NCBI GenBank assembly: GCA_016179685.1
Contig: JACPCR010000064.1
Coordinates: 181,186-245,185 of the forward strand
Length of the DNA: 64,000 bases
Source: Planctomycetota bacterium
GTDB taxonomy: Bacteria > Planctomycetota > PUPC01 > JACPCR01
Direction of reading: 5' to 3'
Shown here: positions 3,549 through 55,258 of the stretch, one piece after another
How the letters are laid out: each line of letters begins with the position of its first letter
Numbering within the stretch: the stretch's first letter is position 1
Program-made: the position numbers and the translations under genes
The notes under the pieces: model-generated
Told to the model about the DNA's origin: nothing
Seen by the model: only the letters and a program-made list of their open reading frames with translations
The model's database searches: none

Positions 3549-3596
3549 CGTAGACGAGTTCGCAAGTACGGGTGCACTTGCGAGCGCGTCTGCTCG
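3549..3596. repeat. REP-like palindrome (degenerate copy), core AAGTAC-GGGT-GCACTT
   Basis: cgTAGACGAGTTCGCAAGTAC gggt GCACTTGCGAGCgcgtc; imperfect hairpin 70 bp upstream of PhyH gene. Confidence 0.7.
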
Positions 3597-3664
3597 GGTG
3601 TTGTGCAGCACGATCCCGGGCCGATGGACCCTCGTAAACCGGGCAAGAAAATAAGAGGTGGACC

Positions 3665-4492
3665 ATGCCGGATTCGACTCTCAAGGGCCAGCAGGTCGGG
3701 CTCACCGACGACCAGCTTCGTTTCTACAAGACCTTCGGCTACGTCGTCCTCCGGGGGTTCTTCACGCCGGAAGAGGTTCAGATCATCCAGCGTGAGGTCA
3801 GCCACGCCATGACCGTCCAGTACGCGCACAAGCCGTTCGACGGCACGGCCCGGCACTGGACCATGATGCTTGAAGAAGATACGCCGTTCTTTGCGAGCTT
3901 GATGGAGGACCCGCGTTTCCTCACGATCGCCAAGCATCTCTACGGCCAGGACGTGCTCGGCGTCGGGACCGATGCCAATCGCTACGTGGGCAACACCGGC
4001 TGGCATCGGGATACGGCCACCGTCCTGCAATACGGCGTGAAATTCGCCTTCTACCTCGATCCCGTGGACGCCTTGACCGGGGCCCTCCGGGTCGTCCCTT
4101 CCTCTCATCGATACCCCGACGATGAGGAATTCGGCAAGCTCATCCGCGGCTTCGCTGTGCAGGACGTGCCCGCCCAGGCGCTCCAGTCCGAGCCTGGCGA
4201 TGCCGTGGCCTTCGATCTGCGGACCTACCACGCCTCCTTTGGCGGAAGCCGGGACCGGCGGATGTGCACGGTGGTCTACTACGGCAATCCGCGTAACGCA
4301 GAGGAAGAGGAAAGCCTGCGCCGGCAAGGCGAAGGCAACGTCCGGGGCAGCTTTAAACAGTTCGGCTGCAAACGCCAGTACCTTTACCCGAGGACCTGGT
4401 ATCAGAATCCGAACCGGAGTCCCGATCGCCAGTGGTGGATCGACCGCCTCAAACAGATCGGATACTTCGACTGGCCGGGGGTGCTTCAGTAG
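3665..4492 (+). CDS. phytanoyl-CoA dioxygenase (PhyH) family Fe(II)/2-oxoglutarate oxygenase
   Basis: 275-aa ORF; GWHRD...D and HxSFGG-like motifs typical of PhyH family; paralogous to three other ORFs in window. Confidence 0.75.
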   Translation: MPDSTLKGQQVGLTDDQLRFYKTFGYVVLRGFFTPEEVQIIQREVSHAMTVQYAHKPFDGTARHWTMMLEEDTPFFASLMEDPRFLTIAKHLYGQDVLGVGTDANRYVGNTGWHRDTATVLQYGVKFAFYLDPVDALTGALRVVPSSHRYPDDEEFGKLIRGFAVQDVPAQALQSEPGDAVAFDLRTYHASFGGSRDRRMCTVVYYGNPRNAEEEESLRRQGEGNVRGSFKQFGCKRQYLYPRTWYQNPNRSPDRQWWIDRLKQIGYFDWPGVLQ

Positions 4493-4550
4493 GCCTTGCC
4501 GAAAACGTTTCCTGAGCGACGCCCATGGAGGGGCGGCGCGTGATTACGCA

Positions 4551-5381
4551 TTACCTGAGATACATGCTCGGCGTGCGGCTGCGCTCATATTTCACGTCCG
4601 GGTCGTGATTCCGGACCGCATCCGGTATCTCCCCGTCCCACCAGCTCGGCGGCTTCGGAAACTCGAAGATCGAGTGCCACTGAAGCACCAGTGTCCGCCT
4701 CTGGGGCGTCCGGTTCGCCCGCGCGCCATGCAGCAGCCGTGCATCGTTGATCACCAGGTCGCCTCCCCGCACCGGCAGGTCCACTGCATCCGGATGGTCC
4801 TGGAAGGCCGGGTGCGACAAGTCGCGTATCGCCTGAATCTCAGGGCCATGGGCGGGCGGCAAGTGATCGTGCAACGGGATGCGCTTGCGGTGCGTGCCCG
4901 GAATCGCCCGCAAACAGCCGTTCTCCAGCGTCGTATCGGTCATGTAGTAGGACAGGAAAACGCGAGTCGGCCACGGGGAAGCGCTCTCCGGATGATTCCA
5001 GTTCATCAGGTCCTGATGCCAGTAGAGCGGGGGACCGTACGCAGGCTTGCTCAGAACAATGATCGTGTCGTCGGGCCTCTGATGTTCCAGGCCGATCCGC
5101 CGGCAGGCCTCCCAGGCCTCCGGGAGGTCGACCAGTTCGTCCACCAGCTCGGAATACTCGCCGCTTTTTCGTTTCTCCCAAAGCCGTTTGGAAGCGATGT
5201 GGAAATCGCTCCCTTGATACCGATACCGCGGGTCAACGGCTTTTCTCTCGAAAAGCTGGTTCGTGAACTGGCGCATCCGCTCGAGCAGGCTGCCTCGGAG
5301 CACCCCCGGGACCACACAATAGCCGAGCTCGACGAGCTCCTGGCGTTTCTTGACCGCCTGTTCCTCAGTGAGTTCGGGCAT
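4551..5381 (-). CDS. phytanoyl-CoA dioxygenase (PhyH) family protein
   Basis: ORF 4551..5675 on minus strand; start moved to internal ATG at 5381 (MPELTEEQ...) which has GGAGGG upstream; WHQD and HGxxxN motifs. Confidence 0.7.
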   Translation of the reverse strand: MPELTEEQAVKKRQELVELGYCVVPGVLRGSLLERMRQFTNQLFERKAVDPRYRYQGSDFHIASKRLWEKRKSGEYSELVDELVDLPEAWEACRRIGLEHQRPDDTIIVLSKPAYGPPLYWHQDLMNWNHPESASPWPTRVFLSYYMTDTTLENGCLRAIPGTHRKRIPLHDHLPPAHGPEIQAIRDLSHPAFQDHPDAVDLPVRGGDLVINDARLLHGARANRTPQRRTLVLQWHSIFEFPKPPSWWDGEIPDAVRNHDPDVKYERSRTPSMYLR

Positions 5382-5494: not shown

Positions 5495-6811
5495 GTGAGC
5501 CCTGCGCCCTCAAGTGTTCCGCGAGGCCTTCCCGTGTTTCCCTTGTTTCAACAATGCTCGCGAAGTAGCCTCGTCCGAACCGCGCTCGTTTCCCTGCCTT
5601 TGCTCGGGCTGATCCAACCCTCATGGAGTCAGGCCCAGGACGGGCCCTCCGGCATCCTGCATGCCTTTGCCACACGGCTTACACAGACGGAGGAGCGGCT
5701 TCCCATCATCCTCAGGGCGGCTGAGTTGGCGGCCCGGCGTTTCCTGGAGCACGAGGACGCCTTCATCAATGTGCCGTACGCCGTCCAAATGTCCTTCGCG
5801 GAAGAGATCGTGAACCGCGCCGGCGGCTTGGCCAACGCTCTTCCAGCAGAAGAACGGCCAGGCCACGCCTCTGCCCACGACATCGCGCTGCTCAGTGTCA
5901 GGGCCTGGAACGTCGACGGACCCGCCATTCTCGAACTGGCCAAGGAATACCGGCGGCGGGGCTGGATGGTCATCCTCTTCGCCTCTGAGTCCGGACGGCC
6001 CGATGGCCTCGAGATCGCCTTCCTCGTAGATAACGGAGCGCGTTCGGGCGCGGCCGCTCATGCCCCCGTCAACGCCCTGATTAATGTGCTCCACGCACAC
6101 CTCTGGGCATCCGAATTTGCGGCGGCACTCACCCGCCGGGACCGCTTCCCCGGCGTCCTCCTGTCCGTCGCCGTCGCTGGCTCCGACGAACATAATCGAA
6201 AGGTCCGGGCCAACCCGGGGACCCGATTTCTGGGCGAATGCGGGACCCGCATGCCCCCTGGGACTGCCGCTCGTGTCTACCTCGAACAGGTTCGGCGACT
6301 GGCCGACTCCCTTGCGGGCGAACGGACCCAACAACAGGTCCAAGCGGCCGCAGACCTCGTCCGCTCCACACTGGATTCAGGTAAACGAGTGAAGGTTTCG
6401 TCCTGCACCCATTTTCTAATGTCCGAGATCTTCCAGAACCGCCTGACCCCGCTCGAGCCCTTCCCGATCGTCTGGCAGTCCTCGAATACCGCCAGACATC
6501 TTGGCCGTGACGACCTCATGATCTGGTTTGGCTACGTGGGCATGAGCACGATCTATGAAGATTACGGCGGCGCGTTGCGACGTACGGGTGCAAAGCTTGT
6601 GGCCAGTTACGTGCCGGACCAGAATAGGGCTAATAACGCTGCCGACGCCGCCTGTCTCATCGAGCAGACCTGGGAACCACCCGACGCAGTCGTCCCTATT
6701 CCTTTCCCTCCGGATTGCATGAGCCCCGTCAGCGGCCTCAATGTTGGACTGCTCTATCGAATGCTCGAAGAGAAAATTCTGGAACTTCTGGGCAACCGGT
6801 CTGCGGAATGA
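5495..6811 (+). CDS. hypothetical protein, possibly secreted
   Basis: 438-aa ORF with non-repetitive composition; GTG at 5495, true start uncertain (hydrophobic stretch LVSLPLLGLIQP near N-terminus); no family recognised. Confidence 0.5.
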   Translation: MSPAPSSVPRGLPVFPLFQQCSRSSLVRTALVSLPLLGLIQPSWSQAQDGPSGILHAFATRLTQTEERLPIILRAAELAARRFLEHEDAFINVPYAVQMSFAEEIVNRAGGLANALPAEERPGHASAHDIALLSVRAWNVDGPAILELAKEYRRRGWMVILFASESGRPDGLEIAFLVDNGARSGAAAHAPVNALINVLHAHLWASEFAAALTRRDRFPGVLLSVAVAGSDEHNRKVRANPGTRFLGECGTRMPPGTAARVYLEQVRRLADSLAGERTQQQVQAAADLVRSTLDSGKRVKVSSCTHFLMSEIFQNRLTPLEPFPIVWQSSNTARHLGRDDLMIWFGYVGMSTIYEDYGGALRRTGAKLVASYVPDQNRANNAADAACLIEQTWEPPDAVVPIPFPPDCMSPVSGLNVGLLYRMLEEKILELLGNRSAE

Positions 6812-6866: not shown

Positions 6867-6914
6867 CCCCGTACACGAAATTGGAAGTGCATGCGCACTT
6901 CCAATTTCGTGTAC
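6867..6914. repeat. REP-like palindrome, perfect 20-bp stem, core GGAAGTGC-ATGC-GCACTTCC
   Basis: ccGTACACGAAATTGGAAGTGC atgc GCACTTCCAATTTCGTGTACgg in intergenic DNA. Confidence 0.8.
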
Positions 6915-7027
6915 GGGACGGTTTGAGGCAGTGCTGTCACGACCGTTCAGATCCTGCCCCACGTATCCGGTGAGTGCGCCCCACCCACTTAGGTGATGCT
7001 CGACGTACCACCGGCAACAAGGCTTCG

Positions 7028-7429
7028 CTAGTTGTACTTCAAGGCAATCTTCCTCGGTCTCGCGGCCTCGGCCTTGGGCAGGATCACCTGCAATACGCCG
7101 TTTCTCATCGAGGCCTCGATCCGGTTCACATCAAACTCGTCCGAAAGAGTGAATGACCTGCGGAAATTGCCCGGAGGATACTCCTGGACCTTCAACTCAT
7201 AGCCCGGAAATTCTTCCTCCTGGATGTGGCCGGTGAGCGTCAGAACGGCGTTCTCCAGCTCCACGTCCACGGATTTCTCATTCACACCGGGCATGTCCGC
7301 CAGGAGTACCAGTTCCTTGTCGCGCTCGAAAATGTCACAGCGAGGCACATACGTCGAGCAGCTTCGAGTAGCTTCCGGGGCCGCTGGAGCGTTGCTCCCA
7401 TACTTCCGAACATGCGTTTCCATTGACAT
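7028..7429 (-). CDS. Hsp20/alpha-crystallin family small heat shock protein
   Basis: 133-aa ORF; alpha-crystallin domain pattern (DIFE...VLLADMPGV...GVLQVILPK). Confidence 0.85.
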   Translation of the reverse strand: MSMETHVRKYGSNAPAAPEATRSCSTYVPRCDIFERDKELVLLADMPGVNEKSVDVELENAVLTLTGHIQEEEFPGYELKVQEYPPGNFRRSFTLSDEFDVNRIEASMRNGVLQVILPKAEAARPRKIALKYN

Positions 7430-7494
7430 GGTCTTGATCCTCCTTTAAGAGTCGAACTCCGATTCCAAGGCGACGCCCATGAAGAGGCGGCGCG

Positions 7495-7938
7495 TCAAAG
7501 TGCCTTGACCTGGACTTGCCTTGGCTTGTCGGCCTCGACACGCGGCAGCGTGATGCGCAAGACGCCCGACTGGTACGCTGCCTGAACCTTTTCGGGATCC
7601 ACACGCACGGGAAGCTCGATCGTACGGATGAAATTGCCCGTGCGTCTCTCCTGCCGATGATAAACTTCCCCCTCCTTCAGGTCTTCAGGCCGGCGTCGGC
7701 CACTCAACGTCAAGGTGTCGCCAAGAACTGAAATCTCGATATCGCTCGGGGCGACACCAGGCATCTCCGCGGTCACCACCATGTCATCCTTACCCGACCA
7801 AACATTGATCCGCGGAAAAGCACTGGTCACGCCGCTCGTGTCCATCTCACCGAACAGGCGATCCATTTCCTGATGCAGACGCCACATGTCAGGCCAGAGA
7901 CCCCTTGCCCAGTCTCCGCTAAGTTCTCGCTTATGCAT
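7495..7938 (-). CDS. Hsp20/alpha-crystallin family small heat shock protein
   Basis: 147-aa ORF; alpha-crystallin domain pattern (VVTAEMPGV...GVLRITLPR); tandem with 7028..7429. Confidence 0.85.
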   Translation of the reverse strand: MHKRELSGDWARGLWPDMWRLHQEMDRLFGEMDTSGVTSAFPRINVWSGKDDMVVTAEMPGVAPSDIEISVLGDTLTLSGRRRPEDLKEGEVYHRQERRTGNFIRTIELPVRVDPEKVQAAYQSGVLRITLPRVEADKPRQVQVKAL

Positions 7939-11097: not shown

Positions 11098-11375
11098 GCT
11101 GGCATCCACGAGTTCAGGAGTGAGTCCATGCGTACGGAGGTGCACTCGACCTTGCGGACGCGTGGACCAGGAGTCTCCAAGGGTCAAAACCGTGATAAAT
11201 TAAACAAGTTTTTTCACTCACAGGGAGAGGGCTGTATCTCATTAGAACGTGCGGCTTTGCGAAGCAATGCCTTTTAGCGGAGCGCTTGCCGTATCTTGTT
11301 TCGGTTCTGGTCGTTCGCGCCACATTGTTCGGTTTGAGGCAACGCTTCGCTAACAGAATATGCCAAGCTCCAAAA

Positions 11376-20517: not shown

Positions 20518-20585
20518 GGACGTGCTCGCGAACAGACTTAGGAAATCAGTTCAGAAATGGTTTCGCACCGTTTCTGAATCGATTT

Positions 20586-20637
20586 GCGAGTAGACGAGTT
20601 GGCAAGTGCACCAGCACTTGCCAACTCGTCTACTCGC
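20586..20637. repeat. REP-like palindrome, perfect, core CAAGTGC-ACCA-GCACTTG
   Basis: gcGAGTAGACGAGTTGGCAAGTGC acca GCACTTGCCAACTCGTCTACTCgc between two minus-strand genes. Confidence 0.85.
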
Positions 20638-21780: not shown

Positions 21781-21868
21781 TCAGGTTTTCGCCCCGTGAC
21801 ATCCCCCTCCCGCAGGGATGCCGCTGCGAGCAGGTCCGCGTTGCGGGCAGGGTGTTGTGTGCGGAACT

Positions 21869-21914
21869 CGTACACGAGCACGGAAGTGCGGGTGCATCTT
21901 CGCAGGCGTGTACG
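21869..21914. repeat. REP-like palindrome (imperfect), core GAAGTGC-GGGT-GCATCTTC
   Basis: cGTACACGAGCACGGAAGTGC gggt GCATCTTCGCAGGCGTGTACg. Confidence 0.65.
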
Positions 21915-21916
21915 AG

Positions 21917-22884: not shown

Positions 22885-22978
22885 CGAGTAGACGAGCTCG
22901 CAAGTGCACCCGCACTTGCGAGCTCGTCTACTCGTATTCCTGTTCAGAAGGGCGGGTGCACTTCTGAACAGGAATACG
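22885..22978. repeat. tandem pair of REP-like palindromes (BIME-like arrangement)
   Basis: cGAGTAGACGAGCTCGCAAGTGC accc GCACTTGCGAGCTCGTCTACTCg immediately followed by cgTATTCCTGTTCAGAAG ggcgggtgca CTTCTGAACAGGAATAcg. Confidence 0.85.
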
Positions 22979-22983
22979 AGTAT

Positions 22984-39594: not shown

Positions 39595-39602
39595 GGTGTC
39601 TC

Positions 39603-41048: not shown

Positions 41049-41444
41049 ATGGCTGACTCTGAAATTCTTCCCGAGGGGAAAGTAGCTTCATCGGGAAAAC
41101 ATGGGGAAGTCAAGTTTGACTACATCAAGAGCAATCATTTTCGGGTAATCTATGCTGACGGTGTCTGGGGTGGTCTAACTCCACGTCTCAAGATGCAGAT
41201 CACATTTTGGAATGAACGCCACCCCATCCCCAGGCAAATCGTTCAGGAACTCACGGAGAAAGAACAGCCGGGTAGAGAATTAAGGCGAGAATCCAGAGAG
41301 GCAATCGTTCGAGAACTCGAGGCTTCGGTCATCATGGACCTCGAGGTGGCCCGCTCTTTCTGCAAGTGGCTCACCGAAAAGATTGAGAAAGCTGACCAAC
41401 TCTTGGCCCAACACAAAGAATCAGAAAAAAAGGAGAATCGTTGA
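41049..41444 (+). CDS. hypothetical protein (island cassette gene 1)
   Basis: within ORF 40881..41444; ATG 41049 preceded by GGGAG; lower-GC region; C-terminal predicted helical/charged tail; no family recognised. Confidence 0.5.
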   Translation: MADSEILPEGKVASSGKHGEVKFDYIKSNHFRVIYADGVWGGLTPRLKMQITFWNERHPIPRQIVQELTEKEQPGRELRRESREAIVRELEASVIMDLEVARSFCKWLTEKIEKADQLLAQHKESEKKENR

Positions 41445-42040
41445 TGCCACCGGCGAGTGCAATGTCCGATGTTATTCGCGCAGGTTCTCACTGCACCAGC
41501 ACTCTTGACTTGAGAGTGCCCCTTCCAGGAGCCAGTCAACTAGAATATGCAGCGTGCTTCCGAAATCCTATTGCCCTGGGTGAAGAGATTCCTTCAGAAT
41601 CCCCATCGGATTGGCCTGTGCCGTTGGACGAGGCGACCGTGGATGCCCTGGGTGAACATAATCTTTCGGAGTTCCCATCGGATTTGACATTTTCCGAACC
41701 TTGCAGCGAGCGAGATCTGGAAGATTATCTCAGAAGTCTCGAAGATGAGGGGTTTATTCCCTCCTCGATGAGGAGGAGCGCTCTGAAACTGTGGAAAACT
41801 TTAGAGCATCTTTCAGGTCATTGTTTGACGATTCCGGGTGCTGCTCCAGGCCCTGACGGGAAGTTATTCCTCGTTTGGGGTGAGGGCGAGCACCACTTCG
41901 AGGCCGAGTTGATCCCTGACAACCCGATAGAGTTCTTCTACATGAACCGCGGAACCAACGAGACTTGGAGTGGAGAGGCTGCTGATGAGAATGAGGTATC
42001 CCACGAAATCGTAGAGAAGCTGATGTCTCTTTGGGGGTAG
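41444..42040 (+). CDS. hypothetical protein (island cassette gene 2)
   Basis: ATG 41444 overlaps upstream stop (TGATG), AAGGAG 9 nt upstream; acidic protein; no family recognised. Confidence 0.5.
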   Translation: MPPASAMSDVIRAGSHCTSTLDLRVPLPGASQLEYAACFRNPIALGEEIPSESPSDWPVPLDEATVDALGEHNLSEFPSDLTFSEPCSERDLEDYLRSLEDEGFIPSSMRRSALKLWKTLEHLSGHCLTIPGAAPGPDGKLFLVWGEGEHHFEAELIPDNPIEFFYMNRGTNETWSGEAADENEVSHEIVEKLMSLWG

Positions 42041-42044
42041 CCTC

Positions 42045-42533
42045 ATGCCCGCAGTGAAGCGAGGGGTGGAGGGCGAGCCCTTACCCGGCGAGGAAGTCGT
42101 TTTCCGTCTCTGGCGGAAAGGAAAGGATGGCACGCGCGATGAATTGGTGGCCGCTTTTGAGTTGTCAAGCGATGAGAGGCGGTCACTACGCCCCACGTTG
42201 TCAGTTTTTGCTGAGGGGCTCACTTCCCATGAACAGGCATTCGAAATTACTGGGAAGAATTCGTTGAAGCGACTCGTGCTCCGAATGCAGGTCTGCGAAA
42301 TTCGGAAGATCGACTTGGTGCCTCCTGACCTGAATTTTCGTGGTCTCGATGTCATCTGGGTCCAAGCCAAACTGCAGGAGAATGGCCGAGAAGTCCCGGA
42401 CGAAAGACCGGGTGCTGAAGGTCATGCTGGAATTTTGGGACTCAGTAGCCCTCCAAACAAGAACTCTAGAAAAGTACTTCGAGTGAAACTTGCCGAATTA
42501 GCCTACCACAACGATCCCTTTGACAAACGTTGA
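42045..42533 (+). CDS. hypothetical protein (island cassette gene 3)
   Basis: 162-aa ORF 5 nt after previous stop; no family recognised. Confidence 0.5.
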   Translation: MPAVKRGVEGEPLPGEEVVFRLWRKGKDGTRDELVAAFELSSDERRSLRPTLSVFAEGLTSHEQAFEITGKNSLKRLVLRMQVCEIRKIDLVPPDLNFRGLDVIWVQAKLQENGREVPDERPGAEGHAGILGLSSPPNKNSRKVLRVKLAELAYHNDPFDKR

Positions 42534-42638
42534 CGGCGAGTGCAGGTACCCGGCAATCACGTCCGATGAGTCCCATCCTCTGATCGAATACCCGCACCGA
42601 GAATCCAGTCAGGTTCTGCAGATAGCGCAGCTTCTTGT

Positions 42639-44681: not shown

Positions 44682-44687
44682 CGGTGG

Positions 44688-45013
44688 CTAAGGTGATGGA
44701 AGAGGAATTTCAACATACTGGCCGGGTTTCACGGTCTTCAGTGTTTGCTCGATGACGGACAGAAGGCCGGCCACCATCGGAACCTGGTTGCTGGGAAGAA
44801 CCACCACTGCGAGCTTTATTGCGGCAAGGTTCTGCTGATAGCGTAAGTTCTTGTCCGTGGTCATGAAGACGTCAAACTCGTTCTCCGCTCGCCTGAGCAA
44901 TTCGCCGTTCTTCAGCCCGCTCCACAAACCATTTCCTGAACGGTTCGGATTGCCAGATCGGGAAGTCGCGTCTTCACCAGCCGCGGCACGCACTCATCAA
45001 GTAAGATTCTCAA
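44688..45013 (-). pseudogene. DUF5615-like (PIN-like) toxin-type gene, apparently frameshifted
   Basis: N-terminal ILLDECVPRLVKTRL (DUF5615-like) is read in one frame from TTG ~45013, the remainder (...WSGLKNGELLRRAENEFDVFMTTD...) in ORF 44688..44993; frames differ by 1 nt near 44930. Confidence 0.4.
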
Positions 45014-45255
45014 TTCGACCTACCCAGGCGCAGAAGGGTGGCTTTGGAGAATTCAAGGACTTGTAACGCCTGCTCTCGAGTCACGGAAGGGAAGTTCTCC
45101 AGAAATTCTTCCAGGGTCAGGCCCGCCTCGAGGTTGTCAATGAGGGCTTGCACCGGGACCCGCGTCCCCCGGAAAACGGGCGCTCCGCTGACGATTTCGG
45201 GATCGATGGTTATCGGCAACTGCTCAAGCTCTGCCTCTTCAATGACCAGTGACAT
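45010..45255 (-). CDS. DUF433 family protein (antitoxin-like partner of DUF5615)
   Basis: ORF 45010..45297; start at ATG 45255 with GAAGGAGG upstream; GAPVFRGTRVPVQALIDNLEAG matches DUF433 pattern from memory. Confidence 0.6.
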   Translation of the reverse strand: MSLVIEEAELEQLPITIDPEIVSGAPVFRGTRVPVQALIDNLEAGLTLEEFLENFPSVTREQALQVLEFSKATLLRLGRSN

Positions 45256-45318
45256 CGTGGGCCTCCTTCGTGAGGGTCGGGAATCGACGAGAGCCATTTT
45301 ACTCCAGATTGCCTTCCC

Positions 45319-48300
45319 CTACACGTCCTTCACGTCGAACATCAGCCGCTGGAATTCCTCCTCAATTAGCCGGACTTTCCAGGTCATGTCCTCACGGCGC
45401 AGGTTTTCCAGGTGGTTGTCGCCGTTCACGTAAATCAGGTCGAACTCCTGGTCCCGGGTGTTGTACTTCTGCTTCCGGAAAAACTCGTCCAGGTCCTCGT
45501 TCGACTTCCCTGCCTTCCCGTCGGGAGCAGACAGGTCCTTCAAGCTCCGCCAGATGACCAAAACCTTCTCGCCCTGGGGATTCGTGCCTTGGACGACCCG
45601 GAAGCCCCGGATAACGTCCACGTGCATTACCCGGAGGCCCAGCAGGTAGTTGAAGGTCTCGACCAGGTCCACGGTTGTGGGCCGAGTCTCGCCCGCGCTG
45701 CCGGTGGCGATGTTGAGCTTGTAGAAGAAGGGGTCTTCGAACGCGGCGATGTTCAGCAGCGACGCGCTGCCGCGGCTCTCCACGTCCAGCATATAGGAGA
45801 GGAGGTAGTCCTCCCGGACTCCGTCGTTGGCTTCCAGGAGGGCGGCCTGCAAGTCGGTGCGTTTCAGTTCCAGGTTGTTGAGGGTGTCTTCGTAGGATTT
45901 CAGCCGGAGGTATTTGAAGAGGTGGCTGGAGCCTTCGCGGCTAACCGGCTTGCCGTCTTTCCAGTCCTTGGAGTAGATGACCTTCTGGATGCGTGGCTTG
46001 AGGACGGTATTGAAGTATTCGGCCATCTCGACGAGGATATACTTGCGGCCCCCCCCGGGTCTCGCGCGTCATCGCGATTCAGGTTGATGACGGCATGGCC
46101 CGTGGTGCCGGAACCGGCGAAGAAGTCCAAGACCAAGGAGTCCTCCGCGTCCGAGCAAATAAGCACGCAATCCTTGACAGCGTGTAGGGATTTGGGGAAG
46201 TCGAATGGACTCAGCGGACCAAACATTTCCTTCAATTCTTTCGTTCCATTGTCCCGAGCAGAATAGGCCGGGCTATCCCACCACGTGCGAGGCAGCGACC
46301 CTTCTTCGCGTAAGTACTTCCGTTTGTAAACCTCGTACTTGCCATCTCGCTTCATCACCTTCATTAGACAGACCTCTGCGATCGCCCTTTGAACGCCGAA
46401 GTTCCAGACCTTTTCAACGCCTGAATCGTCAATGGGCCAAATAGCGACTTCGCCGGGACGGGTTTTCTCGTTGATCCTCCAACTTTTACTGGTTTCTAGC
46501 CATTCCATCCCGGGGATCCGCTGTGCGTGATGCGCCTCGTCGAAGTAGATCGGAAAGAATTGCTTCGGTCGGTCTGGTCTGTCCGATCCCCTGCTGCTCT
46601 TCCTGAAGTTCTCCCATTCGAACGGTTTTCCCTCCTCATCTACTTGGTCGTACCTTTGTCGCTGAGAGTCACTGTGAGGCAACCGACCAACTTCGGAAGA
46701 CTGTGCAAGTTTCGAGTAGAACAGCGCGTACTCGTGGTTAATGGCGAACCCCTTCGTCGTAGCGCGACCGGACGGGTTGTTGCGAATCACAACGGTCGCC
46801 ATGTAGTTCTCATCAAAGAAAACACGATCTAACACAGACCTCAGGCGGTGGGATTCGTAGTCATCTATCGTCACGCACAGCAGCCCGTCGCAAGACAGGA
46901 CTTCACGTGAGAGTGCAACTCTATCTTCGACGAGGGAAATCCAAGTCGAGTGCTTGTACTCGTTCTTATACAGAATCTCGCTCTCTATCGCGTTATAAGG
47001 TGGATCGATGTAGATACACTTAATCTGTTCCCTATAGCGTGTTTCTATTAGGTTGAGCGCCTGGAAGTTCTCCCCGTGCACCAGCAGCCCGTCGGTATTC
47101 TCGTCCAGGTCCTGGATGCTGGCCAGCAGGCGGTCTTTGAACTCCGGGTCGAAGAAACGGGTGTCCAACACCAGGAAGGGATTAGCCTTCAGGAACTCCA
47201 CAGTGAGCGGCTTGGAATATTTCGGGGTGTGCAGGTCGCCCTGGATTTCGTCAATGGCGAAGAGGCGGACCCATTCCTCCCGCTGGGCGTCGCTGGCCGC
47301 GATTTCTACGTATAGCTCCCCAGGGACGCGGTCGAGCGTGATGCAGTAGTTCGTCTCGACCACGAACTTCTTCTTGAGCCAGAGCTTCTTCTGGAAGTTC
47401 TCCAGTTGCTCCAGGAAGGCGATGATCTTGTGGGCGATGCGGCGGAGCGCACGGATTTTGCCGAGATACTGCTCCACGCGGGGCGCGGACTCGCTTTCGA
47501 TGTCGTCCAGGTGCATGACCTCGTTCTTGATGTAGAAGTCCAGCTCCCGGCGGAGGAAGCCGCCCAGGTCCTTGTGGATGAAGTAGTCGAAGGTGTTGCG
47601 GGCGGTGTAGTCCGTGAGGTGCTTTTCGAGAAGGGTGCGGTCGGGATTCTTTTCGGTGGGGGCGGGGGTGGAGAGTTCCTCAATCCATTCTTTCGCATTG
47701 GCGGCTTGTAGTGCCCTCTTTAGAGGGTTGCCTTCGTCTGCACTACCCGCATCGAAGAGACCCGCTGTCCCAGCGGGATCCCTATGGGAAAGCGGCACTA
47801 CGAACCCGGAAGCGATGGCGGCGTTGTGATCCGACTGTTTCCGTTTCTGCGGGTCCGGCTGGTAGAGGAAGTGGATGAATAGCTCGTCAGGCTTTATGTC
47901 CACGGGATTCGATTCGCAGAGCATGAACCGGCGCTCCTTGTCGGGCCCGGCTTTCTGGTTGTCCTTCTCGGTGTCGGCTTCGACGAGCTTGAAGTGGACG
48001 CGGCGGCCGGAGGGGAGCTTGAAGGTGTAGTCCCGGAAGTATTCGGACGACTTGACGTAATACTGGTCGTGATTGGCCCAGTGGAGCTTGACCTCCTCGC
48101 CTTCGTAGGGGATGGCATAGACGCCTTCCTTGTAGCGGCGGAGGGAAAGGAAGTCGCCCTCGTGGTAGTAGCGGCGGAAGAAGTTGGTGAGGTCGGAGAA
48201 GATTTCCTGTTCGAGGGCGGCGGGGTCGCCGGCGGACTGGTATTTGGCCTTGAGTTCCTTGACCTTCGGGCTGGTTTCCGGGTCGATGCCAAGTCCTTTG

Positions 48301-48527
48301 GCCTGTTCGATGGCTTCCTTGAGTTGGGACTCGATGACGCGCTGGTCGCCGGACTGGTGTTCGCTTAGGGCATTGCGGACTTGCGGGAGGAGGTCTTTGT
48401 CGAGGAAGCGGGTAATCTCGTCCCGCTTCTGGTTCATGATGCGGTAGATGCCGAAATCGAGGTCGGCCTGGTCGAGCTGGAAGAGCTCGGCGAGCAACCG
48501 CCTCAACTTCTCGAGGTTTTGAGACAT
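45319..48527 (-). CDS. beta-class (N6_N4_Mtase-type) DNA methyltransferase, type III Mod-like, with ~500-aa N-terminal extension; reading frame interrupted at a C8/G8 tract
   Basis: ORF 45900..48527 contains motif IV IYIDPPYN and, ~300 aa later, motif I LDFFAGSGTTGHA (order IV then I = beta class); C-terminus continues in ORF 45319..46026 if the G8 run at 46049-46056 is read as G9 (...NLNRDDARDPGGGRKYILVEMAEYF...). Confidence 0.7.
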
Positions 48528-48546
48528 TGCGACAAACCCTCTGCGT

Positions 48547-49650
48547 CTATTCGTTGTGCTCGAGGAGCACGAATTTCCGTTTCAGGCCGTTCAAACAGTC
48601 GTGGCGGAGATGCCCCTCGTGCTGAAGCCGCCCGACGACGATACCGGGAGCGATACCGAGTTGACGGGCGAAGGCCGAAATGTCCTTCTCGCTTCGGTAC
48701 TTGCCCGTGGTTACCAGCTCGTCGTACTTGGCTTGCGGGATCAGCATCTTCACCGCGAAACGGTCCGCCTCCGTTTCCTCCATGCTCTTCGGCTTCTCCT
48801 TGTCGTCGACGAAGGCGGCCCTCTTGCCGTGCAAGAGTATGTGGCCTGCCTCGTGGAAGAAGCTGAACCAGAAATGGTCGTCGCTCTTATGCCGAAGGCT
48901 GAGCATCAGGAGGGCCTTGTCCTTGCTCAGCCAGCGTGTCGCGCCGCTGAGGTGCGTGCCCGGCAACTCCGCTACGAAGACGACGGCTACGCCGGCGTCG
49001 CAACAGAGGGCCTTCATCTTCGGCTCGAAGATGGCAGGCTCCGCGTTGGTGACCGACTGAATCTCCCGTAGCGCCGCGAGGAACCGTTCTTTGTCGTAGC
49101 GCGAGCAGACAACTTCCCGCGCCCACAGCTCCCCGATCCGTAGCCACGCCGTCAGGGACTCGGGAGCGCTCTTGAATGCAGGGGAATGCCTATAGGCTAC
49201 GTTGAGACCGGCGTAGGCTTCTTGCCAGGCCTCCACGCTTCCCACACCGAAGAAAGCAAGAAGGGAGGCAACGAGCTCGGCTGGGTCATCGGTTTTGGGA
49301 ATCAACCGGCGTTCAGCAAGCTCCTTGATGGGGAACTTCCTTGCCCACGCTTCCTGGCCCTCAAGCGCGGACCGGTCGGCAGCCTTGGCCGCGTGGAGCC
49401 GGAACAGACCATCCAGGTTGTTCCAGACCGCAGCGGACACGCCAAGGACCCTCTCCAGTTGGATGGCAGTCTCCGACGTGACGTTAGCCTTTCCAGTGAT
49501 GATTTGGCTAACCGTCTTCTCGCTCAGACCGCACCGTTGGGCCAGGTCCGTCCCCTTCATGCCCTTCGCTTCCAGGGTCTCCTTCAAGATCTCTCCCGGG
49601 TGAACGGCGTAGTCGGGATGGAATTCGTTCCTATCCGTGCTAAGTGTCAT
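48547..49650 (-). CDS. HigA-like HTH (XRE family) antitoxin domain fused to ImmA/IrrE-family metallopeptidase domain
   Basis: 367-aa ORF; N-terminal HPGEILKE...LSEKTVSQIITGKANVT HTH; C-terminal FFHEAGHILLH HExxH zinc-peptidase motif (COG2856-like). Confidence 0.7.
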   Translation of the reverse strand: MTLSTDRNEFHPDYAVHPGEILKETLEAKGMKGTDLAQRCGLSEKTVSQIITGKANVTSETAIQLERVLGVSAAVWNNLDGLFRLHAAKAADRSALEGQEAWARKFPIKELAERRLIPKTDDPAELVASLLAFFGVGSVEAWQEAYAGLNVAYRHSPAFKSAPESLTAWLRIGELWAREVVCSRYDKERFLAALREIQSVTNAEPAIFEPKMKALCCDAGVAVVFVAELPGTHLSGATRWLSKDKALLMLSLRHKSDDHFWFSFFHEAGHILLHGKRAAFVDDKEKPKSMEETEADRFAVKMLIPQAKYDELVTTGKYRSEKDISAFARQLGIAPGIVVGRLQHEGHLRHDCLNGLKRKFVLLEHNE

Positions 49651-49985
49651 CGGTGGTAGTCCTCCAGGCTCAGGATGCGGATAGTGGTGATCCGGGTAAG
49701 GTCGATGCCCCCGTCAGGTTTGAGCGGCAGGTCGGCCTCAGCGGGCCCAAAAACGAGACGGAAGGGATGTTTGAGGTCAACGGCGAACTGCCCCTTCCTG
49801 TTCCCCGTCAACTCGTGTCGGCGCGTGGGCGGCACGTGGGGGACCTCGGCGAGTGTCGGGGCAGCTCGAAGGAAGGCCATGCGCTTCATGATAACCTTCC
49901 CGTTCTCTGCGCCGTACTCGCGGCATAGTGCCTTCTCGGAATTGAAGGTCTTAGCCATCTTGTCGTTCCCGAACAGGATGTTCAT
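49647..49985 (-). CDS. HigB-like (RelE/ParE superfamily) toxin
   Basis: 112-aa ORF overlapping downstream gene by 4 nt; resembles plasmid-maintenance-system-killer/HigB toxins (KALCREYG...LTGNRKGQFAVDL...FRLVF). Confidence 0.6.
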   Translation of the reverse strand: MNILFGNDKMAKTFNSEKALCREYGAENGKVIMKRMAFLRAAPTLAEVPHVPPTRRHELTGNRKGQFAVDLKHPFRLVFGPAEADLPLKPDGGIDLTRITTIRILSLEDYHR

Positions 49986-50050
49986 CCCCGCCTCATTATA
50001 ATCAGTTTACCTAAAAGGTAAAGCTTTTTCTCGCGTTCGCACCAGGAGTC

Positions 50051-51543
50051 TCAGGTGACCGACCATCGGATGGTGAAGAGATGCTCCACAGTTGTTCGCT
50101 GGGTCATTCGCTTTTCGAGCGCGGCGATGAGCGTGTCCCGCTTCGCCAGAATCTCATCTTCGAGGTCGAAAATCTTCTGCCGCTGTTTCCGCTGCTTCTG
50201 CTCCAGGTCCCGGATTTGGACCTACAACTGATGCTGCTCTTCAGTGGTGGCAGACATCCGGGCCTGCCGGTTCAGCGCCCGGATCTGCGCTTTGGTGTCC
50301 GCCAACTCCTTTTCCGCGGCCAGAACTTTATCCTCCGCCCATTTCTCCAGCCGTTCCCGCTCCTCCTGGAGGAAGCGGTTGTTCATCTCAAGGGAGCGGC
50401 TGATGGTGGCTTTGACGTGCCGCTGGGCTTCCTTGCCGAGCCGGTCTTTTATTTCCTGCGGCTGGCTTTCCAAAGGGGAAGCCTTGCCATTGCAAAGGAA
50501 AAGCTTCTCGCAGGTTTCCTGGTTCACGGGCCGGGCGGAATCGTCCAGCGCGGAGAAGAGGAGGTATTCCTCCCGGTCGAAGGATTCGATGACGAGCCGC
50601 TGAAGCACGAGCCAGCCGGAGTTGCCTTTGAGGGCCTCCACTACGGAAAGCCGGGTGGGATGGCTGGTGATATCGAAGGCGACTTCCGCGAGCGGGGTCG
50701 GGCAGGAGCGGCCTTCGCTGAGCGCGTGCTGGCCGAGCGGATGGGAGAGGCGATAGAGGAACTCGCCGGAAACGTTCTGCTGGGACTTGGAGATGAGGTG
50801 GTATCGGCCGGGCCGGACGCCATCGCAAGGGGCGGCGTGAAGGTCGAAGTGAAGCGCCTGGTCGTCAAAGCTGGCCGCGTTCCGCAGGATAAACTTGGTC
50901 AGCGCCCAGAAGAGCTTGCCGAAGCGGTCGAGCTGCTCGCGGGCGCTGTCGAGCTGCACTCTCAGGCGGGCGTGGACCTCTTCATCGAAGTGTTCGAGGA
51001 GGATGCGGCGGGTCTCGTCGATCCGGGACTTGATGGAGGATTCGAGTTCGGCGCGGAGCTGCTGGAACGCGGCTTCGATCTCGCCGGGCGTCCGGCACTG
51101 CTGATAGATGGCGAGGATGCGCTTTTCAAAGTCCACGCCGGATTCGATGGTGCCGAGGACTTCGTCCGACGCGCCGAAGACGCCCGTGAAGAGGTTGAAC
51201 TTATCCTGGAGTTCGAGCGACCACTGCTTGCGGATGGATGCCGGGCAGATGACAAGGAGTCGGCGGCGCTGCTCTGTCCAATGCTGTGGCACAGGACAAG
51301 CCCCGCCTCGATGGTCTTGCCCAAGCCGACCTCATCCGCCAGGATGACGCCTTTGGAGATGGGTGAGCGGAGGGCAAAGAGCGCGGCGTCAATCTGGTGG
51401 GGGTTGAGGTCCACGCAGGCGTCGAACAAGGACCGGGAGATGCGGTCCACTCCGGTTGTCGGCCCCTGGCGGGTCAGTTCGTAGGCATAGTAGCGGGCGT
51501 GGTAGGGAGTGCTCACGACCGGGCCAATCTCCGGGGCTATCAA
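50051..51543 (-). pseudogene. SNF2-family helicase remnant (frameshift, in-frame TAG, helicase core apparently missing)
   Basis: N-terminus in ORF 50962..51543 has SNF2 motif I (ILADEVGLGKTIEAG); continuation LVICPASIRKQW is in a different frame (ORF 50222..51292); reading continues in frame through TAG at 50222-50224 for 56 more codons; no DExH or motif VI seen. Confidence 0.5.
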
Positions 51544-52491: not shown

Positions 52492-52521
52492 CTCAGAAGT
52501 GCGGGTGCACTTTCGAGCTCG
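52492..52521. repeat. REP-like palindrome (short, imperfect), core GAAGTGC-GGGT-GCACTTT
   Basis: CTCAGAAGTGC gggt GCACTTTCGAGCTCG ~100 bp upstream of E1 gene. Confidence 0.6.
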
Positions 52522-52620
52522 TGCCCAGCACGACTTTCGCTCCCTGGCGCATTCTGCTAAGATTTGGAATAGGGGCACGCGATCGGAATCCCGAAATGGA
52601 GACTCCCTGAACCCTGCGCC

Positions 52621-54993
52621 ATGGTCCTTCAGATCGATAGCTTGCCCGTCGCCGAGCCCGGACACCTGACGTTCCGGCCCATTCCGGTCTTCCAGAATTC
52701 CTTGTCGCTCGAGCAGGCGCTCGAACGGAATCTGCTGACGCCGGCCCGCGCCCTCGAGCTGCTCGAGCAGATGCGGACTGTCCGGGCATTCGAGGAGATG
52801 ATTCTGACGTTGCGTGCGGGCGCGTACGAGCCCCTGAAGGGCTACGAGTACCGGGGTCCGACGCATCTTTCGATCGGGCAGGAGGCGACATCGGTGGGGG
52901 GCTGCGCGGCCATCGGGCCGGAGGACTACATCACCAGCACGCACCGGGGCCACGGCGACGGCATCGCCAAGGGCTTCAGCGCCATCACGGCCATGCCGGA
53001 CGAGGGTCTGCGGGCGCGGCTCGGGCTGGGGAATGCGAGTGCGGCGACTCGGCCGGAGCTGCTGGATCGGGCGCTCGAGGATCATCTCTTCCGGACGATA
53101 GCGGAGCTGTTCGGCAAGGAGGCGGGCTACTGTCGGGGCCGGGGCGGCGGCATGCACATCGCCGATTTCAGCGTGAACCATCTCGGCGCGAACGCCATCG
53201 TCGGCGGCAGCACCGGCATCGCCGCGGGGGCGGGCATCAGCAGCCGATACCGCCGGTCCGGCCAGGTGGCCCTCGCCTTCGTGGGCGATGGGGCCTATAG
53301 CAACGGCATCACGCTCGAGTCGATGAACCTCGCCAGCATGGCCCAGTTCTCGAATCCGAAGCTGACGGACCATCCCTTCGGAGTCCCCACGGTCTTCCTA
53401 ATCATCAACAACCAATATGCCATGACCGGGCAGCAGCAGGGCGAGATCAGCGGGGTGGACTACCTGGCCCGCCGAGCCGCGGGATTCGATCTCGACGGGC
53501 TGCACGCCGAGGTGATCAATGGGATGGATGTCCTGGCCGTGTTCGACAGCATTCGCCGGGCGGCCCAGCTTTGCCGAGAGGGTCATGGTCCCGTCGTCCG
53601 CGAGCTGGTGACTTACCGCTACTACGGCCATTCGCTGAGCGACCAGGGCTCGGAATATCGCCGGAAGGAAGAGGAGAAGGCATGGAAGGAGATCGATCCG
53701 ATTCCGGCCCTGGAGAAGCAGATTCTGCGGCTGGGCCTGGCGACGGAGGAAGGGTTGGCGGCGTTGCGTGCCCGCGTGCAGGCGCGGCAGGACCGCGCGG
53801 CGGTCCGCGCGGCGGAAGCGCCGGAGCCGGACGTGCGTGAGTTGACGCGCTACGTCTTCACGGAACGGCGTGAGGCGCACGTGCCCGAGCCGTTCCGCCA
53901 GGTGAAGACGCTGTCGCCCGCCGTGCGCTCCAAGCGCGACAAGGACGGCCAGATCACCTTCAAGGAGGCGGTCCGGGAGGCGCTCATGGAGGAGATGCTC
54001 CGGGACCGCCGAGTCCTCTTCTACGGCGAAGACGTCGCCGATTACGGCGGCGCATTCAAGGTCACCAAGGGCCTCCTCGAGATATTCGGCCGGGACCGCG
54101 TCTTCAATACCTCCATCTCCGAGGCCGGGATCGTGGGGACCGGCGTCGGCTGCGCCATGACGGGGCTGCGGCCCGTCGTCGAGCTCATGTATTCCGACTT
54201 CGAGTTCCAGGCGAGTGACCAAATCCACAACCAGGCCGCCAAGTGGAGCTACATGTCCGGCGGGCAGACCTCCGTTCCGCTGGTGATCCGGACCTCGCAG
54301 GGCGCGGGCAAGGGCTACGGGGGCCAGCACTCCCAGGCGCTCGAATCGCATTCCACCCATACGCCGGGCCTGAAGGTCGTCGTTCCCTCCACACCCTACG
54401 ACGCCAAGGGACTGCTCAAGACGGCCATCCGAGACGGCAACCCGGTCCTCTACGTCGAGAACCAGAGCCTCTACAACCTGAAGGGGCAGGTGCCGGAGGA
54501 GGAATACCTTGTCCCGTTCGGCGAAGCCCGCGTTCTGCGCCGCGGCCAGCACGCGACGATCGTGGCCTGGTCGCTCCTCGTGCACGAGGCCATCAAGGCC
54601 GCGGACGAGTTGGCCCGGGAATTCGAGATCAAGGTGGAGGTGATCGATCCGCGGACGCTTTGCCCGCTCGACCTCGACACCATCGTCGAATCCGTGCGAA
54701 AGACCGGGCGACTCCTGGTGGTTTCCCAGGCCTGCCGGACGGGCAGCTTTACGGGCGAGATCGCCGCCCGCGTCCAGGAAGCGGCATTCGATGACCTGGA
54801 TGCCCCGATCGCGCGCCTCGGCTCGGCTGACGGGATATCGCCCCAATCTCACGTTCTCGAAAAGGCCTACCTGCCGAACGCGACGTCCATCGTCGCCGCG
54901 GTCCGGGCGCTGACTCAAGGCCTCTCGGTGGGACAGGCACGGTCCGGCGAGCGCACAGAGCGGCTACAGGTTCACCGCTCGGCTGACACTTGA
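52621..54993 (+). CDS. thiamine-diphosphate-dependent 2-oxoacid dehydrogenase E1 component, fused alpha and beta subunits
   Basis: 790-aa ORF; N-terminal half has E1-alpha TPP-binding region (GDGAYSNG ... YRYYGHS); C-terminal half has E1-beta features (transketolase-like pyrimidine-binding and C-terminal domains). Confidence 0.8.
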   Translation: MVLQIDSLPVAEPGHLTFRPIPVFQNSLSLEQALERNLLTPARALELLEQMRTVRAFEEMILTLRAGAYEPLKGYEYRGPTHLSIGQEATSVGGCAAIGPEDYITSTHRGHGDGIAKGFSAITAMPDEGLRARLGLGNASAATRPELLDRALEDHLFRTIAELFGKEAGYCRGRGGGMHIADFSVNHLGANAIVGGSTGIAAGAGISSRYRRSGQVALAFVGDGAYSNGITLESMNLASMAQFSNPKLTDHPFGVPTVFLIINNQYAMTGQQQGEISGVDYLARRAAGFDLDGLHAEVINGMDVLAVFDSIRRAAQLCREGHGPVVRELVTYRYYGHSLSDQGSEYRRKEEEKAWKEIDPIPALEKQILRLGLATEEGLAALRARVQARQDRAAVRAAEAPEPDVRELTRYVFTERREAHVPEPFRQVKTLSPAVRSKRDKDGQITFKEAVREALMEEMLRDRRVLFYGEDVADYGGAFKVTKGLLEIFGRDRVFNTSISEAGIVGTGVGCAMTGLRPVVELMYSDFEFQASDQIHNQAAKWSYMSGGQTSVPLVIRTSQGAGKGYGGQHSQALESHSTHTPGLKVVVPSTPYDAKGLLKTAIRDGNPVLYVENQSLYNLKGQVPEEEYLVPFGEARVLRRGQHATIVAWSLLVHEAIKAADELAREFEIKVEVIDPRTLCPLDLDTIVESVRKTGRLLVVSQACRTGSFTGEIAARVQEAAFDDLDAPIARLGSADGISPQSHVLEKAYLPNATSIVAAVRALTQGLSVGQARSGERTERLQVHRSADT

Positions 54994-55206
54994 CGCGCCG
55001 TCTCTCCTTGGACGTCGCTTCTCCCGTAGGGACCTGCGGAGGACATGAGGGGGTGCGGTGGCCTCCAGCCCCGGCATCCCCGGCACCTCCCATTTCCGTC
55101 GCTGACCGGGGCGGCGCGACAAGACAGGAAAAATCCACAAAGCGAAGAAATTTCGCCGTAAGAATTTGGTGAAAAGAATGATGATTTGAGCCCTGTAGGG
55201 GCGCAA

Positions 55207-55258
55207 TAATGGTTTCGCTAGTAGACGAGTTCGCAAGTGCAGGTGCATTTGCGAACTC
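55207..55258. repeat. REP-like palindrome, core CAAGTGC-AGGT-GCATTTG
   Basis: gcTAGTAGACGAGTTCGCAAGTGC aggt GCATTTGCGAACTCGTCTACTCgg immediately upstream of DUF58 gene. Confidence 0.8.

Follow-up and report, generated by a model that had tools for sequence, protein, structure and literature searches.

GTAG-tagged families of repetitive extragenic palindromic (REP) sequences, including those of Rhodopirellula baltica, have stems of 5–13 bp and an unpaired GTAG and occur as dimers and clusters (Di Nocera et al. 2013, PMC3733652). Genes for REP-associated tyrosine transposases (RAYTs) with flanking REPs are known from Planctomyces brasiliensis, P. limnophilus, and Pirellula staleyi; there, the basal stem is 7–20 nt, and "symmetric" REPs, in which GTAG is paired to CTAC, are on record in Table S1 of the same study (Quentin et al. 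2018, PMC6006769). REPs of the RAYT-associated type have a conserved GTAG or GTGG lying 0–2 nt 5' of the hairpin foot, normally unpaired. The class 3 TnpA-Y1 ("TIRYT"-like) proteins, found mainly in Planctomycetes and Acidobacteria, are flanked by atypical hairpins with a CnGA foot, which reach ~600 copies in Solibacter usitatus (PMC6006769). In Stenotrophomonas maltophilia, the terminal inverted repeats (TIRs) of ORF1152 are self-complementary repeats next to a tyrosine-transposase gene (PMC3733652). Here, we describe a family of hairpin-forming palindromes with the core AAGTGC-N4-GCACTT in a 64,000-nt stretch of an uncultured Planctomycetota genome (assembly GCA_016179685.1, contig JACPCR010000064.1, positions 181,186–245,185; hereafter the window), to which 6.3 kb of upstream flank was added from Logan contig L124, for 70.7 kb surveyed altogether. 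The family, which apparently has not been described before, is probably one of lineage-specific, REP-like dispersed palindromic repeats.

How numerous are these palindromes relative to chance? The exact core, AAGTGCNNNNGCACTT (AAGTGC-N4-GCACTT), occurs five times in the window against 0.00 expected from 100 dinucleotide shuffles. With up to two mismatches allowed, there are 10 occurrences against 1.81 +/- 1.17 in the shuffles (shuffle maximum 6), and these are precisely the ten sites that an earlier reading of the same DNA—hereafter the original prediction—had proposed as a family with a shared core. Each site exists and is the apex of a hairpin; the element placed at 55207 begins instead at 55220, and site 4 (at 21869) and site 9 (at 52492) are imperfect. 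Window hairpins with a stem of at least 13 bp are all members of the family, with seven centers against ~1 in dinucleotide shuffles. A covariance model of the 50-nt unit, run without filters over the window, scores the ten sites at 43–74 bits. The four next-best matches are those at 11121-11170, 57979-58028, and 62358-62407 (Table 1) and one at 25449-25481 (16.9 bits). The last is a partial match within an aldehyde dehydrogenase gene and was taken as chance, while the three weak full-length matches are all intergenic and recognizable as decayed copies. An additional unit at 20543-20585 is a diverged tandem partner abutting site 3, and two further units lie in the upstream flank (L124:2305-2354 and L124:3805-3857). 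The predicted "at least ten" elements are thus joined by at least four more in the window, and the total reaches 16 units per 70.7 kb (14 in the window and two in the flank), a density of ~1 per 4-5 kb.

All 16 units are intergenic on a gene map assembled from the gene calls of the Logan records and Pfam. Intergenic gaps make up 14.6% of the sequence, and the 14 window units occupy 12 of 48 such gaps; by our own estimate, made from these figures, the chance probability of intergenic placement is ~1e-10. For the ten predicted sites the extragenic location held after two gene calls had been corrected: the true start of the PhyH gene in ORF (open reading frame) 21917-22915 is at 22762, and ORF 33089-34117(-) is spurious, the true gene being a creatininase-family gene at 33116-33949(+). 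Of the 12 occupied gaps, 11 separate same-strand genes and one (site 2) separates convergent genes; no unit is found in the ~7 divergent gaps. For the nine loci of the ten predicted sites, the tandem:convergent:divergent ratio of 8:1:0 is statistically uninformative, there being only ~7 divergent gaps. Copies lie 2–123 nt before the next start codon, in line with the prediction that most sit upstream of starts, but they also lie 0–227 nt past a same-strand stop codon (four within 0–2 nt); because they follow stops equally, and one is between convergent genes, their placement does not imply a promoter or 5'-untranslated-region role. Three successive spacers are filled in the same-strand gene string running from 24623 to 19468, and zero copies are found across 37.5–52.4 kb, a stretch that includes a low-GC restriction-modification island.

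Could the units simply be ordinary intrinsic (Rho-independent) terminators of similar look? Every copy is downstream of a same-strand stop codon, and the four that abut one might seem to invite this explanation, but we consider it extremely unlikely. The elements have no U-tracts, and only site 7 marginally passes a stem-plus-T-run test; the count of terminator-like structures in 19–38 kb is at the shuffle level (17 vs. 15.2). A textbook terminator (an 11-bp GC-rich stem followed by T9) is present at 29366-29399, after the stop codon of ORF 27981-29342, from which it follows that the organism uses canonical terminators. Moreover, terminators neither share 50-bp sequences nor form families with decayed copies.

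What do the units have in common, and where do they differ? The ten sites, aligned on the loop center and oriented by the loop, yield the consensus (C/A)GTA(G/C/T)-ACGAG-[4-5 variable nt]-(C/G)AAGTGC-NGGT-GCACTT(G/C)-[complement]-CTCGT-(C/G/A)TAC. The full unit is a near-perfect palindrome of 44–54 bp; short forms of 26–42 bp exist, as do decayed forms. Conservation is highest at the apex, where all ten sites keep AAGTGC and GCACTT with little or no change, and lowest at the ends. Stems are perfect at sites 2, 3, and 5 and over part of site 7, near-perfect at sites 6 and 10, and imperfect at sites 1, 4, and 9, with a short stem at site 8 (Table 1); stems of the ten sites measure 11–25 bp, beyond the predicted upper limit of 22 bp. 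The predicted N4 loop is indeed 4 nt long but not random in sequence: seven of the ten loops are NGGT or its complement ACCN, which gives the units a polarity, and units are found in both orientations. Spacing is equally regular, with exactly 14 nt from GTA to AAGTGC in all seven long units and likewise in the decayed copy at 57979.

Inner arms sort the units into subfamilies: YTSGC at sites 1, 3, 5, and 10 (subfamily a); CACGG at sites 4 and 7; ATTGG at site 2; and TTCAG at sites 6, 8, and 9 and in the unit at 20543. These are joined in mosaic combinations to outer arms of GTAGACGAG, GTACACGAR, or GTATTCCTG, or to none. The subfamily-a copies, at unlinked loci (3.5, 20.6, 22.9, and 55.2 kb), are 87–92% identical across 47–50 bp. 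CGGA or CAGA directly precedes AGTGC in five units (subfamilies ii and iv), and CGCA does so in subfamily a. Two heterodimers are present (20543+20586 and 22885+22929), as well as a remnant of one at 55208, and the arrangement recurs: each time a TTCAG-type unit accompanies an a-type unit (20543 with site 3, site 6 with site 5, and the remnant to the left of site 10). Sites 5 and 6 overlap by a 6-bp boundary, TACTCG.

The original prediction had also singled out GTAG/GTAC 5' ends. On the + strand of the window GTAGACGAG occurs four times, every time at the 5' end of an element, and its complement CTCGTCTAC closes three of these four elements (the fourth CTCGTCTAC, at 17375, is inside a gene). 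GTAG itself, however, is found in only 4 of the 16 units, all of one subfamily, the others having GTAC (three units), GTAT (one), or neither; where present, it is always base-paired inside the stem and never forms an unpaired 5' foot.

Perfect palindromes of 44–54 bp that share outer arms (GTAGACGAG, GTACACGAR) at several loci and are lineage-restricted and intergenic might also be minimal miniature inverted-repeat transposable elements, in which two TIRs of a DDE-type insertion sequence (IS) are joined head to head and moved by the transposase of that IS. We judge this quite improbable. The termini of the units are more variable than their center, the opposite of what TIR-based elements display, and the short forms retain the center and lose the ends; inspection of the flanks revealed no target-site duplication or direct repeat around any unit, and there is no IS or transposase in the 70.7 kb. 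Integron attC sites have conserved outer R''/R' core sites (GTTRRRY) and a variable center and stand in a cassette array beside intI. They were rejected as an identification, given that the family shows the reverse pattern, with a conserved center and variable ends, and has neither GTTRRRY nor, by Pfam, an integrase nearby.

Is the hairpin itself under constraint? In the 23-pair structure, 87% of alignment cells hold standard pairs against 71% in column shuffles, and 14 of the 23 stem pairs have been altered on both sides. Covariation is scored at 0.439 for the alignment and at 0.167 for shuffles, none of which (0/500) attains the observed value, and sliding the 3' partners by 1–3 columns lowers pairing to 29–51%. 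Sites 3 and 5, for example, differ at three stem positions, each altered on both arms. As RNA, the hairpins are predicted to fold with energies between -17 and -49 kcal/mol and z-scores down to about -12. Symmetric variation would not be required by a protein that binds DNA as a dimer, so either pairing within a single strand has been selected or one arm has been copied from the other. The possibility that each arm is a separate REP, and the unit a head-to-head dimer of REPs, was rejected on inspection, as the arms have no internal stem-loop.

These patterns bear directly on whether the palindromes are operator sites, through which a nucleoid protein or global regulator that binds DNA as a dimer would control genes downstream. 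The AAGTGC half-sites are 10 bp apart center to center, which is the classical geometry of a helix-turn-helix dimer; the apex is the best-conserved part, with its two hexamers kept, or nearly so, in all ten copies; a same-strand start codon follows eight of the nine loci at a distance of 2–123 nt; and several neighbors are related catabolic genes (four PhyH, two Ldh_2, creatininase, and AstE/AspA). Even so, we give the operator explanation little credence. It leaves unexplained the 19–25 bp of perfectly complementary yet sequence-variable flanks and the 14 compensatory pairs, and entire 47–50 bp units that are 87–92% identical beside unrelated genes, tandem heterodimers, and decayed copies all stand against it. 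One copy is between convergent genes and another comes right after the ffh stop codon; other neighbors are functionally unrelated (E1 dehydrogenase, DUF58/BatA, and hsp20); and a quarter of the intergenic gaps are occupied, yet 0 of ~7 divergent promoter regions. Outside the hairpins the hexamer shows no enrichment, and no gene for a regulator lies close by. A literature search for AAGTGC/GCACTT as an operator motif gave nothing relevant. A DNA uptake sequence (DUS/USS-like) was rejected on the same lack of enrichment outside the hairpins.

Alternatively, the units could form an RNA regulon resembling that of iron-responsive elements, the apical stem-loop being bound by an RNA-binding protein or nuclease that regulates the stability or translation of flanking cistrons. 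A conserved apex on a base-variable, covarying stem does resemble protein-bound RNA hairpins, hairpins occupy intercistronic spacers of same-strand strings (e.g., 24623 to 19468), and G-U pairs slightly favor the sense strand, 8:4. We nevertheless regard a dedicated regulon as unlikely, for the asymmetric loop (GGGU vs. ACCC) is found in both orientations to transcription (6 vs. 3), the decayed copies and the convergent-gene copy argue against a uniform function, and a search of the window against Rfam gave zero matches above the gathering score. Nor does such a role exclude the repeat explanation, as REPs, too, are exapted as RNA elements.

How far does the family extend beyond the window? 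Identical contigs are present in the Logan assemblies of four runs (SRR12113401, SRR12113426, SRR12113429, and SRR12113432), and all overlapping Logan contigs are 100% identical to the window. Contigs end inside three of the palindromes, at 3554 (L125/L126), 21897 (L129), and 22916 (L127/L128), as expected of repeated palindromes. The E1 dehydrogenase and a 380-aa hypothetical protein of the window are 100% identical to proteins of a metagenome-assembled genome (MAG; MBI2192368.1, locus tag HYU36_10320). By E1 identity the nearest sampled relatives stand at 84%, followed by others at 73–77%; the core motif was not found in the 11–22 kb locus of each of these relatives, and the covariance model detected in the same loci one weakly related hairpin only (28 bits), in the 84% relative. 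The strict subfamily-a arm pattern had 0 matches in Joint Genome Institute (JGI) metagenomes, and the 18-base pattern CAGAAGTGCN4GCACTTCTG had 27 matches in metagenomes, none with the family arms, which is about the chance level by our rough estimate. A looser pattern, GCAAGTGCN4GCACTTGC, had at least 114 matches of chance type in genome contigs, with no family arms among the matches listed, and a scan of viral sequences returned three matches, all coding and unrelated.

Overall, the copy number, exclusive intergenic location, covariation, subfamilies, dimers, and decayed copies support the interpretation of the family as lineage-specific, REP-like dispersed palindromic repeats, which we consider probable. 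Several observations weigh against it. In agreement with the original prediction, no RAYT gene is in the window, and the absence extends to the 6.3 kb upstream: the ORFs of the 70.7 kb encode no Y1/RAYT or other transposase domain (including PF01797). GTAG is confined to one subfamily and paired; conservation peaks at the apex and not, as in canonical REPs, at the foot and lower stem; and stems of 19–25 bp compare with 5–13 bp in GTAG families. No insertion polymorphism is seen among the four samples carrying the region, all 100% identical, and an empty-site comparison is impossible because relatives of E1 (73–84%) and of the 380-aa protein (49–53%) lack synteny with the window. Wobble pairs favor the sense strand by no more than 8:4, and a role at the RNA level is one that we purely infer. 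The REP-like nature claimed by the original prediction is thus upheld by copy number, location, and covariation, but the link to RAYTs that it drew from GTAG is not established, because that tetranucleotide is limited to one subfamily and paired, the apex is what is conserved, and no RAYT is encoded in the 70.7 kb.

How might such repeats spread and act? Copies would be multiplied in trans by an enzyme that recognizes the folded single strand, the most plausible candidate being an HUH-Y1 protein (a RAYT or a class 3 TnpA-Y1) encoded elsewhere in the genome; we put forward mobilization by a Y1 enzyme as a tentative proposal. Once inserted and transcribed, the elements would fold, between cistrons and at 3' ends, into RNA stem-loops of high stability. 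As REP elements and bacterial interspersed mosaic elements (BIMEs) do in E. coli, these would shield the mRNA upstream of them or modulate read-through and the translation of the following gene. A more doubtful suggestion is that the conserved 16-bp apex (AAGTGC-NGGT-GCACTT), with its half-sites spaced by one turn of the helix, is a recognition site carried by the palindromes, either as the substrate of a class 3 HUH-Y1 enzyme or as the site of a dimeric host protein. In its first form, the apex may be a double-footed, strand-symmetric substrate of little-studied planctomycete and acidobacterial enzymes; in its second, if true, a mobile repeat would have wired a quarter of the intergenic regions into one protein–hairpin network.

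Table 1. Units of the palindrome family in the window and in the upstream flank (L124), with covariance model score and RNA folding energy
Unit	Position	Form	Score (bits)	Folding (kcal/mol)	Placement
Site 1	3547..3596	Subfamily a, CTCGTAGACGAG-TTCGC-AAGTAC-GGGT-GCACTT...; stem imperfect	60.8	-27.5, z -4.1	PhyH gene 3665-4492(+) starts 70 nt downstream
Site 2	6868..6917	Perfect 23-bp stem; outer arm GTACACGAA, inner arm ATTGG, loop ATGC	64.2	-42, z -11.6	Between convergent 5534-6811(+) and hsp20 7028-7429(-)
Decayed copy	11121..11170	Core GCAAGGTC-GAGT-GCACCTCC; outer stem GTCCAYGCGT	19.5 (E 0.011)		Gap 11098-11375
Diverged unit	20543..20585	TTCAGAAATGGT-TTCGC-ACCGTTTCTGAA		-16.1, z -5.4	Tandem with site 3
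Site 3	20586..20637	Subfamily a, perfect 24-bp stem	69.2	-48.6, z -12.4	Touches stop codon of 20638-21780(-); 69 nt upstream of Ldh_2 19468-20517(-)
Site 4	21867..21916	Imperfect; outer arm GTACACGAG, inner arm CACGG	57.1		Touches stop codon of PhyH 21917-22762(-)
Site 5	22885..22934	Subfamily a, perfect 23-bp stem	73.5	-46.4	First half of heterodimer
Site 6	22929..22982	25-bp stem (96% complementarity); outer arm GTATTCCTG, inner arm TTCAG	65.4	-39.1	End is 1 nt from stop codon of 22984-23799(-)
Site 7	33045..33086	19-bp stem including one G-T pair (17 bp perfect); inner arm CACGG; no GTA end	58.6	-36.9	96 nt past stop of PhyH 32077-32949; 30 nt before creatininase start 33116
Site 8	36560..36585	Short form TTCAGAAGTGC-TGCC-GCACTTCTGAA; 11-bp stem	43.3		21 nt upstream of AstE/AspA-family gene start 36607, immediately before its AGGAG ribosome-binding site
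Site 9	52492..52517	Short imperfect form CTCAGAAGTGC-GGGT-GCACTTTCGAG	51.2	z only -1.3 for 50-nt frame	~100 nt upstream of E1 dehydrogenase 52621-54993(+)
Site 10	55220..55265	Subfamily a; 22-bp arms, 95% complementarity, G-T pair in core	68.2	-36.9	End is 2 nt before called GTG start of DUF58 gene 55268; left flank has remnant ATGGTTTCGC of 20543-type unit, at 55208
Decayed copy	57979..58028	GTAC-N10-AAGTAG-GATT-CCACTT...GTAC	18.6 (E 0.019)	z -4.1	Overlaps called start of gene 57980-59233
Weak decayed copy	62358..62407	Arm CGAACACGAGCACGGA, 83% identical to left arm of site 4	15.5 (E 0.14)		Gap 62270-62412
Upstream unit	L124:2305-2354		31.5
Upstream unit	L124:3805-3857	Perfect 28-bp stem	30.2		Directly follows ffh stop codon

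A second intergenic repeat of ~75–100 bp is present at 32950-33023 and, inverted, at 11276-11349, the copies being 81% identical. This repeat, too, forms a large hairpin, AGCGAAGCGCTGCC...GGCAAGCGCTTCGCT. Its copies stand close to family members, 22 nt separating the first from site 7 and 105 nt the second from the decayed unit at 11121, which suggests composite mosaic units and recalls mosaic BIME organization. Shorter repeats were also noticed. The 20-mer GTCTCGGAATTTCAATCGCG occurs in three intergenic gaps, at 34237-34255 (reverse complement), 37476-37495, and 38574-38587, and one of its copies coincides exactly with the ends of two Logan contigs (37470-37497). Just past stop codons, GCGACGCCCATG..GGCGGCGCGT is found at 4506-4541 and 7460-7495 (83% identical), and the motif TGACGCGCCGCC overlaps the stop codon of 4–5 genes (including those at 31069-31079, 33945-33960, and 54990-55000). 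An exact 28-bp direct repeat, GGTCGATCCTCGATCGCAAGGGGCGGGC, lies at 29544-29571 and 29605-29632, its copies separated by a palindrome of 33 nt, within ~1 kb that contains no genes (28949-30017); because there are only two copies, it is not an array of clustered regularly interspaced short palindromic repeats.

Two unrelated repeats turned up in other genomes and metagenomes. The gammaproteobacterial MAG_seacave_3 (JBPCWX01; contigs L002, L013, L058, L061, L089, and L096) has a multi-hairpin repeat in at least eight copies, CACCCCCCGC-TTTA-GGGGGGGGT-GCAAGTGC-N4-GCACTTGC-GGGGGGTG followed by a second C/G-rich hairpin, twice as tandem copies 200–243 bp apart. The 8-bp apex GCAAGTGC that it has in common with the window family was judged a coincidence (1 in 65,536 per hairpin family). 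Three JGI metagenome contigs (L144, L145, and L159) carry a palindrome with a 21-bp stem, AAACCTTACATACAGAAGTGCGATCGCACTTCTGTATGTAAGGTTT, that has a HIP1-like GCGATCGC center and is probably a cyanobacterial repeat, unrelated to the window family.

The GC content of the window is 56–67%, and its genes include what looks like a concentration of catabolic functions at 3665-5381, 19468-27742, and 30018-37473: four PhyH-family dioxygenases and two Ldh_2 genes, together with creatininase-family, AstE/AspA-family, Amidohydro_2, aldehyde dehydrogenase, and class-III aminotransferase genes. The apparent substrates are amino acids that are modified or cyclic, of the ectoine or hydroxyproline kind. ORF 27981-29342 has an odd codon-position GC content (gc1 0.47, gc2 0.61) and internal repeats at 28317-28910 with periods of 96 and 378 nt; it has no Pfam match, an opposite-strand ORF (28349-28948) competes with it, and it probably encodes a repeat-rich protein that is secreted or located at the surface. 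The low-GC island (0.56–0.57) spans ~40700-51500 and encodes a DNA methylase (45900-48527), a ResIII helicase (42639-44681), an HTH/Peptidase_M78 protein, and a DUF433 protein, along with small ORFs matching no family; it contains none of the palindromes and was probably acquired horizontally as a restriction-modification or defense island.

The family adds a well-defined case from an uncultured Planctomycetota lineage to the catalog of REP-like elements, and its unusually long, perfect, apex-conserved architecture could help define recognition by planctomycete HUH-Y1 enzymes. For those working with the genome, there are practical consequences: the repeats interrupt short-read assemblies of the organism at predictable points, the in-arm TAG yields spurious ORF extensions and stops, and the units provide a lineage-specific marker for binning and strain tracking.

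How, then, does the family compare with known systems? CIRCE, the controlling inverted repeat of chaperone expression (TTAGCACTC-N9-GAGTGCTAA), is the operator of HrcA. The resemblance consists of inverted half-sites containing GCAC/GTGC and of one copy near hsp20 genes; the half-site order, however, is reversed, the spacing is unlike that of CIRCE, the copy in question is downstream of hsp20 and not in its promoter, and extended covarying stems are no feature of an operator. The TIRs of S. maltophilia ORF1152 are likewise long, self-complementary, moderately abundant, often in dimers or clusters, and distinct from GTAG-tagged stem-loops, but they are defined by a flanking transposase gene, which was not observed here, and their sequences are unrelated. 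The hairpins of class 3 TnpA-Y1 are similar in phylum and in their 4-nt loops; they have a 5' CnGA(G) foot, of which the CGGA/CAGA directly before AGTGC in subfamilies ii and iv may be a counterpart. One of them, CACGAGC-CGGAAGCG of Planctomyces limnophilus, agrees with CACGAGCACGGAAGTG, the arm of site 4, in 14 of 15 positions (one gap included) when counted by eye, a short resemblance noticed after the fact. Class 3 hairpins, in contrast, are ~26 nt long with ~9 bp, imperfect, and asymmetric, and subfamily a has CGCA.

The closest likeness is to REPs, BIMEs, and REPINs (paired REPs): short extragenic palindromes that fold into stem-loops, lie at about one per 4–5 kb, and are species-specific. 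Long forms of the present family, with perfect stems of 19–25 bp, fall outside the REP range and only the short forms (11–13 bp) fit it; most units have GTAC, GTAT, or nothing in place of GTAG; and a conserved apex with a conserved NGGT loop takes the place of the conserved foot. As in REPs, on the other hand, there are subfamilies with compensatory stem changes, inverted dimers and heterodimers, mosaics with other intergenic repeats, and copies placed after stop codons and inside operons. One subfamily has GTAG at the 5' end of both strands, symmetric REPs with a paired GTAG are on record, and REP and RAYT systems are known from Planctomycetes. The palindromes are of the same general kind as the REPs known from E. 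coli and Pseudomonas—a new example of it, with no new principle.

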